Origin: a virus
Taxonomy: Duplodnaviria; Caudoviricetes
IMG/VR virus record: IMGVR_UViG_3300028591_000176
Location: 1 to 64,000 of that record
Strand: one strand, 5' to 3'
Length of the DNA stretch: 64,000 nucleotides
Shown here: positions 10,820 to 14,989 of the stretch, piece after piece
Numbering within the stretch: the first letter of the stretch is position 1
How the letters are laid out: each line of letters opens with the position of its first letter
The notes under the pieces: generated by a model
Told to the model about the DNA's origin: nothing
The model's database searches: none
What the model saw: the letters and a program-made list of their open reading frames with translations, nothing else
Position numbers and translations under genes: made by a program

Positions 10820-11584
10820 ATGATTGAGCTTAATAAAATATACAATGGCGATTGTCTTGATGTAATGCAGGGGATAGACGACAAAAGTGTTGATTTGATT
10901 CTTTGCGACCTGCCTTATGGCACTACGCCGCTAAAGTGGGATAGCATAATTCCTTTTGAGCCGTTGTGGGATGCCTACAAGCGCATAATAAAGCCTGATG
11001 GTGCTATTGTGCTGTTTGCCGTGCAGCCGTTCACCACGATGCTTATTTCAAGCAATATCGCCATGTGGAAATACAATTGGGTTTGGGTTAAGGACAATGG
11101 CACTAATTTTCTCAACTCTCATTTTCAGCCGTTAAAGATTACGGAGGACATTTGTGTCTTTAGTTTTAGTGCAGCATCACAGAACAGCAATCCGATGACG
11201 TATAATCCACAGATGCGTGAAGGGTTTGACTCATACGTACGTGTCAGGGGCGAGCGTAAGCCTAATGCGGTCACGCGTTCCAAATTGCAGCGTTGTACTA
11301 CAAACAACGACGGCACGCGTTATCCGACGAATATTTTGTATTTCAAAAGAGACAAAGAGAAGTTGCATCCTACGGCGAAGCCCGTTGACCTGTTACGTTA
11401 CCTCATTCGCACGTATACAGGCGAAGGCGGGCTTGTTCTTGATAATTGCGCTGGCTCTGGTAGCACTTGTATTGCTGCCATTCGTGAGAAGCGTAACTGG
11501 ATAGGCATTGAGCTTGATGAGGGTTATTTTAACCTAGCTTCCGAAAGAATTGCGCTTGAAAAACGGCAATTAACCTTATTTTAG
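10820..11584 (+). CDS. Second orphan DNA amino-methyltransferase (beta class), ends QLTLF
   Basis: DLPY catalytic variant, HPTAKPVDLL, DNCAGSGS, GIELD. Confidence 0.92.
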   Translation: MIELNKIYNGDCLDVMQGIDDKSVDLILCDLPYGTTPLKWDSIIPFEPLWDAYKRIIKPDGAIVLFAVQPFTTMLISSNIAMWKYNWVWVKDNGTNFLNSHFQPLKITEDICVFSFSAASQNSNPMTYNPQMREGFDSYVRVRGERKPNAVTRSKLQRCTTNNDGTRYPTNILYFKRDKEKLHPTAKPVDLLRYLIRTYTGEGGLVLDNCAGSGSTCIAAIREKRNWIGIELDEGYFNLASERIALEKRQLTLF

Positions 11585-11602
11585 TTAAATAACGCAAAAT
11601 AT

Positions 11603-11633
11603 TTTGTTGTATGGGATAAAATGCCTATCTTTG
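11603..11633 (+). promoter_or_regulatory. Consensus Bacteroidota promoter for the initiator/primase-helicase operon
   Basis: TTTG (11603-11606), 19-nt spacer, TATCTTTG (11626-11633). Confidence 0.8.
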
Positions 11634-11654
11634 CAAAAGAAAAAAACGATTCGA

Positions 11655-11786
11655 TGCGCTGCCAGCTACAATAGGCGCAAAGAACGAGAGATACATGTTA
11701 TAACAATCTTGCCTACGCGGGTGGTATGATGTTAGAGTAGCTGCTGACGGATTATCACCCGCAGGCTTTTAAAAACAGCTACAATG
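11655..11786 (+). ncRNA. Candidate structured 5' leader (two hairpins with complementary loops)
   Basis: Hairpin 1 loop CAGCTAC (11663-11669), hairpin 2 loop GTAGCTG (11737-11743), and a second CAGCTACAAT overlapping the start codon (11776-11785). Confidence 0.55.
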
Positions 11787-12692
11787 GATTTTAACAGAGA
11801 ATGTTTTACGTTTCATGCAGGTTGGTACAATGCCGTTGCCACGCTTGATAATAATGTCAGGCTTGAGGTGTATGATGCCATTATGCGTAAGGCGTTGTTT
11901 AACGAGCCGCCAAGCCTTTCTGTTGCGGGGCGTGTTGCTATGGCTTTCATTGAGCCGCAGTTGGAGCATGATACCGACAAATGGCTTATGGTGCGTGAGA
12001 AGCGCAAGGAGAGTGGAAAGAAGGGCGGGCTAGCAAAAGCTAGCAAATGCTACCAAATGCTACCAAATGCTAGCATTTGCCAGAACGCGCCCGCGCAAGA
12101 AAGTGTAGACACTATTATGTCTAGTCCTATCAGTAATAATTATAATATTATACACGAAGATAAAGACAAGGACGTATTAATAGAAAAAGAAAAAGAAACA
12201 CACAAAGAACAAGAAAAGGCTGCGCTTGAAGAAAAGAAAGAGAAAGACAATCTTTTTGAGAAATGCTGGGTGGCTTACAATCGCAAGGGCAGCAAGAAGA
12301 AGGCGCGTGCGCAATGGGACAAGCTCAGTCAGAAAGACCGCGAGAAGGTTATGCCGCACATAACGGCATACGTTAGCAGTCGTGAAAGACAGTTCCAGCG
12401 TGACTTTGAGCGTTACATCCGTGACAAGACTTTCTTGGATGTTATCACCAAGGGCAACAGCGTTGTCTTTGACCCGTCTTTTGATGGCGGTGCGGAGTAT
12501 CGTCCTTTGACTGACGGGAACATCCACTGGAATGACTTTCATAAGTGTTATATCTACGTCGGCATGTTCTATGATAACATCATCGACGGGTATACGGATG
12601 ACAACCGCCCTGATGGTGCTTGTATAATGTTGAACAATGCGCGTGGCACATTGGTGTGGCGTGCAGAAAGAAAAGAATGGGAGAAGATATGA
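11784..12692 (+). CDS. Putative replication initiator/organiser (DUF6291-like N-terminus)
   Basis: N-terminal FTFHAGWYNAV...RLEVYDAIM pattern, low-complexity charged linker, helical C-terminal domain. Sits upstream of the primase-helicase. Confidence 0.6.
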   Translation: MDFNRECFTFHAGWYNAVATLDNNVRLEVYDAIMRKALFNEPPSLSVAGRVAMAFIEPQLEHDTDKWLMVREKRKESGKKGGLAKASKCYQMLPNASICQNAPAQESVDTIMSSPISNNYNIIHEDKDKDVLIEKEKETHKEQEKAALEEKKEKDNLFEKCWVAYNRKGSKKKARAQWDKLSQKDREKVMPHITAYVSSRERQFQRDFERYIRDKTFLDVITKGNSVVFDPSFDGGAEYRPLTDGNIHWNDFHKCYIYVGMFYDNIIDGYTDDNRPDGACIMLNNARGTLVWRAERKEWEKI

Positions 12693-12901: not shown

Positions 12902-14989
12902 ATGGATGTAAACGAAATAAGAAAGTGGCACGATACGTTCAAACGCGAAGATGAATTGTTTGAAATACGTATATTGGGTGACAGAACTTGGAGCGGCTAT
13001 TTTTACGATGTAGAGAGCGCGATAAAGGCACTTGAACCATTTGATAATGCCAATATTTATTATTCTGTCAACGAAGTCAAAAAAGCATGCGCAAGCCGCG
13101 ACCAATTCAATTGCTTTAGACAGGTTAAAGGAACTGCTACAAGCAAGCAGGATATAGCGCACCGTTGGTGGTTGCCTATTGATGTGGATTGTGAGCGTCC
13201 AAGCGGCGTTAGCTCAACGGATGCAGAAAAAGCAAAGGCACACAAGAAGGCACAGGACGTATTTGTTTTTTTGCGTGACAATGGCTTTAGCACGCCAGTC
13301 GTTTGCGACTCATCAAGCGGCTATCATTTGCTTTATCCTATTGATATGGATAACACACAAGAAAGCGAAGATGTTATTAAGGCTTTTCTTGAAATCCTTG
13401 CGAACAACTTTACTGATGAGAGCGTTAAAATAGACACAGTTTTGCATGACGCAAACAGGATACTTCGTTTGTCTGGAACTTTCGGTCGCAAAGGGCGTTC
13501 AAGCGAAGAACGTCCGCATCGTCTTGCAAAGATTCTTGCAGTACCTAAAGACTTTCGTCGCATGACAGCTTCTCAGATAGAGAGTTTTAACGAGAAGTAT
13601 TCGATAAAGATAGAGCAACCTCAACGGCGGGCTTATAACGCAAACGAGGCTTGCCCTGAATTTAATTTGCGCGATTTTATTCAAAAATATGGTATAGAGA
13701 TTGCGAAAGAAGTCCCAATTAGCGGAGGAGGAACGAAATACGTTCTAGCCCATTGCCCATTTGATGAAGGACATAAAGCTCCTGATTCTGCTTTGTTTGA
13801 ACTTCCTAACGGTGCTATTGCTTTTAAATGCTATCATAATTCTTGTTCGCAATATGATTGGCGTGCGTTTAGGCTGCATTTTGACCCCCACGCATACGAC
13901 CATGAAAGTGAGCCACGGCAATACGCGAAACAAATACCGCAGCCGCGCCAATATGCCGTTCAAAAGCCTAAATATGTGATAAAGGACGAGTCGCCAGAGT
14001 TAGGCGGCAAGTGGCTTTCTTTGTCCGACATAAAAAAGGTAGACCTTTCGCAGATAGAGACCGTGAAGACAGGGTTTGCCGAACTTGACAGGGCTATCGT
14101 CGGACTGAACATGGCCGAGGTCACGTTGCTTAGTGGCAGCAATAGCTCTGGAAAATCTTCATGGCTAAATACCCTTATCCTTAATGTCATCAATCAGGGT
14201 ACAAAGGTCGCGCTGTGGTCAGGCGAGCTGCCAGACTATATTCTGAAAACGTGGATACAGATGGTTGCTGCTGGCAAACGCAACTTGCGCCTGTCTCAAT
14301 TTAAGGAAGGCAAATATTATGTGCCTGATAACATTGCTGCGCACATCGACCAATGGCTTGATGGGAAATTCTTCCTGTACAACAATGAATATGGCAACAC
14401 ATGGGAGCAGATATTCCATGACATGAATGAATTGCTAAAACTTGGAGTTAAATTGTTTGTACTTGACAACCTTTTTAGCCTTAATATCGACCTGCTTGAA
14501 GGTGACAGGAATAACAAGCAGAAAGAACTTATATTGCAGATTAAGGAGTTTGCGAAAAAGAACAAGGTACATATCATTCTGGTTGCGCATCCTAGAAAGG
14601 CGATGACATTCCTGCGCAAGAATGACATTAGTGGTACTAGCGACTTAACTAATGCCGTCGATGATGTGTTCATCATACACCGCGTTAACAATGACTTTTT
14701 GCGCACTGGCGAGGAGTTCTTTGGCAAAGGTTCTATGAGCCGCTTTGAAAGCTATGGAAATGTGGTCGAGGTTGCAAAGAACCGTATGTATGGCGTTGTA
14801 GACCTTATGGTTGGGCTGCACTATGAAATAGAAAGCAGGCGGTTTAAGAACAGCATCGATGAAGATTTAAGATACGGGTGGGAGGCAGAGCCGCAGCAAC
14901 AATCCTTTGAATACAACGAACCAGCACCGCAGGAAAGCGATGATGGCCTGCCTTTTGCTGCCTTTACTGATAGCAATGCCCCATTTTAG
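12902..14989 (+). CDS. Primase-helicase fusion: AEP-like primase, Cys/His linker, SF4 (DnaB/T7 gp4-like) helicase
   Basis: DVD and SSSGYHLLY primase motifs, HCPF...CYHNSC, Walker A GSNSSGKS, Walker B FVLDNL, LVAHPRK, DISG, VAKNR. Confidence 0.85.
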   Translation: MDVNEIRKWHDTFKREDELFEIRILGDRTWSGYFYDVESAIKALEPFDNANIYYSVNEVKKACASRDQFNCFRQVKGTATSKQDIAHRWWLPIDVDCERPSGVSSTDAEKAKAHKKAQDVFVFLRDNGFSTPVVCDSSSGYHLLYPIDMDNTQESEDVIKAFLEILANNFTDESVKIDTVLHDANRILRLSGTFGRKGRSSEERPHRLAKILAVPKDFRRMTASQIESFNEKYSIKIEQPQRRAYNANEACPEFNLRDFIQKYGIEIAKEVPISGGGTKYVLAHCPFDEGHKAPDSALFELPNGAIAFKCYHNSCSQYDWRAFRLHFDPHAYDHESEPRQYAKQIPQPRQYAVQKPKYVIKDESPELGGKWLSLSDIKKVDLSQIETVKTGFAELDRAIVGLNMAEVTLLSGSNSSGKSSWLNTLILNVINQGTKVALWSGELPDYILKTWIQMVAAGKRNLRLSQFKEGKYYVPDNIAAHIDQWLDGKFFLYNNEYGNTWEQIFHDMNELLKLGVKLFVLDNLFSLNIDLLEGDRNNKQKELILQIKEFAKKNKVHIILVAHPRKAMTFLRKNDISGTSDLTNAVDDVFIIHRVNNDFLRTGEEFFGKGSMSRFESYGNVVEVAKNRMYGVVDLMVGLHYEIESRRFKNSIDEDLRYGWEAEPQQQSFEYNEPAPQESDDGLPFAAFTDSNAPF

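Follow-up and report, generated by a model that had tools for sequence, protein, structure and literature searches.

A kissing-loop leader RNA with covarying heptamers upstream of putative replication genes in Bacteroidota phages

In P1/P7 and in P4/phiR73, variation in the complementary sequence defines specificity, and the c4 RNA of phages P1/P7 (Rfam family C4) is related to the CI RNA of P4. The P4 CI RNA is derived from the leader of the replication operon and pairs with one site upstream (seqA) and one site downstream (seqC) (PMC4825925). Here we analyzed a leader of comparable layout in a 64,000-nt stretch of phage DNA (the window), which covers positions 1 to 64,000 of the IMG/VR virus record IMGVR_UViG_3300028591_000176 (Caudoviricetes; 76,969 bp, 97% complete). 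The leader precedes a putative replication initiator gene and contains two hairpins, P1 and P2, whose loops display the complementary heptamers A1 and A', respectively; a second copy of A1, named A2, lies next to the start codon. RNA-level gene control is still poorly understood in the Bacteroidota, the host phylum in this case, and in their phages.

Like the P4 CI RNA, the leader is a sense-strand RNA of a replication operon and carries a sequence complementary to one copy upstream and one copy downstream. The order A1 - A' - A2 corresponds to seqA - seqB - seqC of P4, and the downstream operon encodes a primase/helicase in both phages. However, no homology with the P4/C4 RNAs was detected, and Rfam C4 gave no match even at E <= 10. 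The fold of two kissing hairpins with a 7-nt pairing, the host phylum and the absence of an integrase from an apparently virulent phage also distinguish this locus from P4. In addition, the downstream target abuts the start codon here, and this position makes translational control the more likely output.

The plasmids IncI-alpha (ColIb-P9 repZ) and IncB (pMU720 repA) are similar in that a loop of the rep leader pairs beside the rep start. In these plasmids, translation is activated by the pseudoknot, which depends on translation of a leader peptide and is prevented by a countertranscript. The present leader differs from them by a second target copy in cis, located in another hairpin loop, and by the lack of a conserved leader open reading frame (ORF) or antisense promoter.

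Fully paired loop-loop helices of about 7 bp with fast and specific recognition are shared with ColE1 RNA I/RNA II, CopA/CopT of plasmid R1 and the HIV-1 dimerization initiation site. In such kissing devices, a single change in a loop gives rise to a new specificity group. The partners in these systems are opposite-strand transcripts or two genomes, whereas both loops belong to one sense-strand leader here. A 10-nt self-complementary linker between P1 and P2 resembles a dimerization site, and dimerization of the present leader is predicted.

A structured sense-strand leader with three covarying heptamers

The leader is located in a gap of 199 nt between a DNA methyltransferase gene (10820-11584) and an ORF of 302 aa (11784-12692). 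Its elements in the window are as follows:

11641..11791, plus strand: match to the leader RNA family model R1 (118.7 bits, E about 1e-18)
11647..11686, plus strand: P1 domain (predicted fold), with a lower helix 11647-11652 / 11682-11686
11655-11660 / 11674-11679, plus strand: stem of P1 (hairpin 1), TGCGCT / GGCGCA, last pair U.G, 13-nt loop
11663..11669, plus strand: A1, CAGCUAC in the P1 loop (from sequence)
11711..11766, plus strand: P2 (hairpin 2), outer helix of 4 bp, stem of 10 bp, internal loop, inner stem of 6 bp
11736..11743, plus strand: 8-nt apical loop of P2, AGUAGCUG (from sequence)
11737..11743, plus strand: A', GUAGCUG in the P2 apical loop, complementary to both A1 and A2
11767..11775, plus strand: UUUU then AAAAA after P2, resembling a terminator tail
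11776..11782, plus strand: A2, CAGCUAC again, separated from the start codon by 1 nt

The helices of P2 are formed by GCCT 11711-11714 / AGGC 11763-11766, by 11717-11726 / 11753-11762 and, in the inner stem, by 11730-11735 / 11744-11749. The sequence CAGCTACAAT occurs again at 11776-11785, where it overlaps the ATG at 11784-11786. Both hairpins, the heptamers displayed by them and the repeat at the ATG were found where the original prediction had placed them. CAGCTAC or its complement occurs four times in the 64-kb window versus 6.9 times expected, and three of the four copies fall within 120 nt in this leader. The leader folded better than its shuffles (z = -2.9); A1, A' and A2 were unpaired in the centroid structure and largely unpaired in the nested ensemble. 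The clustering of the heptamers together with the better-than-shuffled fold excludes chance. The R1 match is the only copy in the 77-kb phage genome.

A total of 69 viral and 80 metagenome loci were obtained by protein-guided retrieval, among which the near-identical loci L001 and L002 shared the same leader and were uninformative. A covariance model (A3, R1) built from 15 upstream regions identified 42 distinct homologous leaders of ~145 nt in phage or metagenome loci, all of them on the sense strand. In the R1 alignment, 99.2% of the cells were paired and 25 of 27 pairs showed double (compensatory) changes. Covariation was found at four of the five pairs of P1, and compensatory changes at all 15 modelled pairs of P2; G-U pairs were frequent in both hairpins. 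The covariation of the stems and the common G-U pairs indicate an RNA read from the plus strand; the leader is a real, widespread and structured sense-strand RNA. Searches of Rfam with gathering thresholds over the whole window, and with E <= 10 over 11560-11830, gave no family match, riboswitches included, and literature searches found no description of the leader. The RNA is thus uncatalogued, being absent from Rfam and from the papers searched.

The loop-loop helix was left out of model R1, therefore its covariation is independent of the fit. The original prediction had named a lack of loop complementarity in homologous leaders as grounds for refutation. A1 and A' were complementary at 7/7 positions in all 42 leaders, and six of the seven positions covaried across 11 alleles (CAGCTAC, CTGCTAC, CTGCTAT, CGGTCAT, CGGTCAC, CAACCAC, CAGTCAC, CTATCAC, CTTCCAC, CATCCAC and TGTGCAG). 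A2 was exact in 34 leaders and matched at 6/7 positions in three more, and it ended 0-6 nt before the ATG in 37 of the 42 homologues, whichever gene followed. The spacing was near-constant, with 39-43 nt from A' to A2 and 12-16 nt from the end of P2 to A2. Exact heptamer triples at these positions appeared in about 1% of shuffled leaders. The duplex energy of the heptamers ranged from -7 to -10.5 kcal/mol (about -9) across every allele. Two alternative partners for the loop of hairpin 2, as originally proposed, are well supported by these data. The exact 10-mer repeat that had also been pointed out is present in the window, but only the heptamer is conserved in relatives, the additional AAT not being conserved.

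According to the proposed mechanism, ~145 nt between the promoter and the first replication gene would be transcribed as a structured leader RNA. Pairing of A' with A1 would form a 7-bp kissing complex and leave the start free, and pairing of A' with A2 would block initiation of the initiator-like gene. Bacteroidota ribosomes use an unstructured A-rich start region instead of a Shine-Dalgarno sequence; since such a start would be needed, the A'-A2 pairing would be expected to prevent initiation. Since all three sites change in concert among the related phages, the leader very probably gates replication-gene expression, and the best-supported way of doing so is control of the translation of the first replication gene. 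The leader would represent a compact natural device that gates access to a start codon without Shine-Dalgarno pairing.

The original prediction had also referred to antisense copy control as in IncI/IncB. In this alternative, of the IncI/IncB or plasmid R1 type, a minus-strand countertranscript would bind the P2 loop and prevent formation of an activating pseudoknot. The loop-to-start logic is indeed the same as that of the repZ/repA pseudoknot, and a faint match to Rfam ctRNA_p42d is located on the minus strand at 11633-11667. However, this match reached 14 bits compared with a threshold of 50 (E = 2.7), and the G-U pairs of the stems would become C-A mismatches in an antisense RNA. A minus-strand scan of 40 loci, in and after the leader, for promoters of the TAnnTTTG type found no conserved one; this Bacteroidota -7 motif gave three scattered matches. 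A conserved leader peptide was not found either. In the window, a six-codon ORF (ATG CGC TGC CAG CTA CAA TAG, 11654-11674) spans P1, but only about half of the homologues have an ATG before P1, with differing frames and lengths, so that a leader peptide was rejected. We regard antisense copy control as very improbable for this locus.

The internal loop of P2 is conserved as 5'-GAAA / 5'-GAGUA(G) in most homologues (A4 columns 105-108 and 125-129) and resembles a bulged-G (sarcin-ricin or loop E) motif. The window carries the variant UGAU / GGAU at 11727-11729 / 11750-11752.

Heptamer alleles, specificity and the linker palindrome

The heptamers change fast. Leaders with 95% identical flanks differed at four of seven heptamer positions at all three sites, which corresponds to 12 coordinated changes. 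The heptamers diverged by about 0.35-0.42 per site regardless of flank identity, and on the flank tree, which is weakly resolved, the 11 alleles required at least 20 changes. Several alleles also coexist in one metagenome, since L017, L026 and L071 were all from sample 3300021387.

The allele did not follow the protein encoded downstream. At least seven unrelated classes of N-terminal domains were present in the first gene products, with several alleles in each class, and single alleles spanned several classes. For example, L165 has the DUF6291-type N-terminus of the window yet carries the allele CGGTCAT. In seven loci (L011, L026, L034, L054, L084, L113 and L156) the first gene encoded an HNH endonuclease, and A2 (exact or 6/7) was located at the HNH start in six of them, L156 having no A2. 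Judging from these sequence comparisons, the heptamer shows the behaviour of a hypervariable specificity determinant. The 11 alleles could provide at least 11 natural orthogonal versions of the device, a ready set of RNA switches for Bacteroides engineering.

Genes for HNH or NUMOD4-type homing endonucleases were found directly after the leader and before the rep gene in the seven HNH loci and in L166 (1527-2054, minus strand).

The linker between P1 and P2 contains a further variable element:

11696..11705, plus strand: 10-nt perfect palindrome TGTTATAACA in the P1-P2 linker (A4 columns 68-77)

A 10-nt palindrome was present at the homologous position in 34 of the 42 leaders. Five alleles occur in these leaders and a sixth was seen besides; all of them (AGTAATTACT, AGTTATAACT, TGTAATTACA, TGTTATAACA, TTAACGTTAA and AGTATATACT) stay symmetric, and they vary independently of the heptamer alleles. 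The self-duplex was calculated at -8.1 to -9.6 kcal/mol (about -9) for every allele, and the palindrome favours a predicted homodimer of the leader by about 12 kcal/mol. A hairpin formed by the palindrome was rejected, with a minimum free energy of 0 and covarying central positions. The palindrome could serve either in RNA dimerization or as the target of a DNA-binding protein that acts as a dimer.

The latter option belongs to an alternative in which the heptamers (two direct and one inverted) and the palindrome act at the level of double-stranded DNA and bind a phage protein, as an autoregulatory operator or as origin iterons beside the initiator gene, the hairpins being incidental. In favour of this view, the heptamers repeat exactly, wobble being almost absent, their alleles recur from a limited set, and origins often adjoin rep genes. 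The AT-rich palindrome with its symmetric changes, central positions included, is also typical of sites for dimeric proteins. However, the allele does not track the putative DNA-binding N-terminal domain and an HNH gene can come first; initiator iterons were rejected for these reasons. Two hairpin loops always hold the heptamers, the stems beneath them show covariation and strand-specific G-U pairs, and one natural G.U pair occurs within the kissing helix itself (L113; 1/294 cells). In the unrelated class-2 leaders described below, the targets pair with different loop registers and include G.U pairs, which would make no sense for a DNA site. A2 furthermore tracks the start codon and not a fixed distance from the promoter. 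We consider a role as DNA sites improbable.

Fast allele turnover is not explained by a switch acting purely in cis, therefore suggesting recognition between molecules; trans recognition is what a fast-switching specificity code would serve. Targets on other molecules may also be recognised by the leader or by a fragment released from it through processing or termination. This would result in allele-specific control of replication-gene expression among co-resident phage genomes, in the manner of the P4 CI RNA with its targets seqA and seqC. Taken together, the best explanation, and in our opinion a reasonably probable one, is a riboregulatory leader of P4-like layout that controls translation of the first replication gene and may do so in an allele-specific manner. 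A role resembling immunity or copy control is suggested by the hypervariability of the code. If the heptamer does act between molecules, the fast diversification of the code would be explained, and RNA immunity of the P4/P1 type would extend to a new phylum, a new fold and apparently lytic phages of gut and rumen.

A more tentative extension, possible but speculative, is that the heptamer serves as an RNA 'barcode' by which co-infecting or co-resident Bacteroidota phages sense and repress each other's replication genes, which would amount to RNA-based immunity or incompatibility among apparently virulent phages. Dimerization through the palindrome would then provide a switch that responds to concentration and hence to copy number, and the cassette would have been reused before homing-endonuclease genes.

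Leaders without the downstream heptamer and a second leader class

Several observations weigh against the riboregulatory reading. A1-A' pairing is kept without any A2 in five of the 42 leaders (L029, L099, L154, L156 and copy 2 of L166), and L062 and L045, which fall below model detection, likewise keep the kissing pair without A2. The kissing pair therefore has a role independent of A2, perhaps in termination. The A2 of L034 does not match its own A', indicating recombination at the leader-gene junction. The kissing helix is nearly free of G.U pairs though the stems are rich in G-U, and exact DNA repeats would give the same pattern. With the outer helix of P2 closed, the linker between P2 and A2 is ~9-10 nt by geometric estimate (no computation), so that pairing in cis would be strained. 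Finally, classical lysogenic immunity is unlikely because neither an integrase nor ParB was found in the phage, and protein- and DNA-pattern scans of 185,000 species (host) genomes revealed no true copy of the leader. Five pattern matches in these genomes failed the covariance model, and their number equals the chance expectation. The phage looks virulent.

The A2 of L034 fits the HNH cassette of the L011 type and not the loops of its own leader.

The leaders lacking A2 raise the alternative that the functional unit is the P1-P2 loop-loop complex, working without A2. It could serve in transcription attenuation or termination, in RNA processing or stability, or as an independent small RNA, and A2 would have been gained secondarily or in certain lineages. 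All 42 leaders retain the A1-A' pairing, but five of them have an absent or mismatched A2 and three an imperfect one. P2 resembles a true intrinsic terminator in the members without A2, most of which have 6-8 U after P2; UUUU follows P2 in the window, and the second leader copy of L166, without A2, lies before a homing-endonuclease gene. However, the exact A2 of 34 leaders, with its fixed distance to the ATG and its covariation with A1 and A', cannot be incidental, and A2 stays with the start codon where a different gene has been inserted. The longest U-run after P2 was 2-5 nt in 39 of the 42 homologues and 6-8 nt in three, and is missing in some. The class-2 leaders, moreover, independently target the start region. 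A function without A2 therefore appears rather unlikely to us as the main role of the fold, and translational control through A2 remains preferred.

A canonical terminator appears unlikely for the family as a whole, as the U-tract is not conserved and P2 is not a universal terminator; a terminator scan at the window leader was negative.

Two leader copies with different alleles were found 1.4 kb apart in L166 (538-687 and 2042-2178, both minus strand). One of them carries CGGTCAT with A2, and the other carries GCTCTAC without A2, then UUUUU. The second copy precedes a homing endonuclease located between two methyltransferase genes. In the A2-less leader of L099 (924-1076), the sequence AAAGAACAAT overlaps the start codon and has an exact complement, ATTGTTCTTT, in the 5' flank. 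The start site would thus be closed by other means in this leader.

A second, unrelated leader class was detected before the same rep-like gene family. These class-2 leaders form a three-way junction beginning with GGCGTGAG and comprise 12 distinct forms (L010, L013, L020, L023, L039, L042, L046, L053, L110, L111, L118 and L133) and the variants L003 (2400-2503), L035 and L038. A hairpin loop is complementary to two sites downstream of the loop. The stronger pairing, over 6-9 nt, involves the nucleotides that end 1-6 nt before the ATG, and the weaker one involves a site that precedes them. The pairing showed covariation, G.U pairs and at least four loop alleles. Class 2 thus appears to converge independently on the logic of pairing a loop with the start codon.

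Promoter and downstream genes

The features flanking the leader are as follows:

11602..11633, plus strand: promoter of the Bacteroidota type, -33 TTTG 11602-11605, 20-nt spacer, -7 TAtcTTTG 11626-11633 (from sequence)
11784..12692, plus strand: first gene of the operon, 302 aa, N-terminal DUF6291 (Pfam) and conserved C-terminal domain
12902..14989, plus strand: DnaB-like primase/helicase, next large gene of the same operon (domain and PHROG searches)

The consensus promoter named in the original prediction is present but belongs to the Bacteroidota type, and a sigma-70 scan of the leader strand found no promoter. Transcription would probably start near 11640. In 30 of 40 homologues the motif TAnnTTTG preceded the model match by 11-27 nt, and in 31 of 40 it did so within 60 nt.

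In PHROG, the 302-aa protein was matched weakly by proteins of replication initiation and by primosomal proteins (E 1e-6 to 1e-7). It is plausible that the product is a replication initiator or replisome organiser. The earlier designation as replication initiator is therefore kept as putative only, and an HNH gene takes its place as first gene in some relatives. Searches by blastn and tblastn against GenBank phages and PLSDB plasmids found no relative; thus, there is no cultured model phage.

The rep-like family is modular. A low-complexity linker connects a conserved C-terminal domain of ~150 aa, with the motifs DGYTDDNRPDGA and QKDFERYLRD, to N-terminal domains of at least seven unrelated kinds, DUF6291 and HTH_36 among them. 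This C-terminal domain is common to >100 metagenomic proteins with unrelated N-termini.

In L024, L058, L075 and L155 the promoter is located further upstream, and an additional hairpin of 9-10 bp, GUGGCGUAG...CUACGCCAC, is found before the leader, some 60-100 nt ahead of the R1 match.
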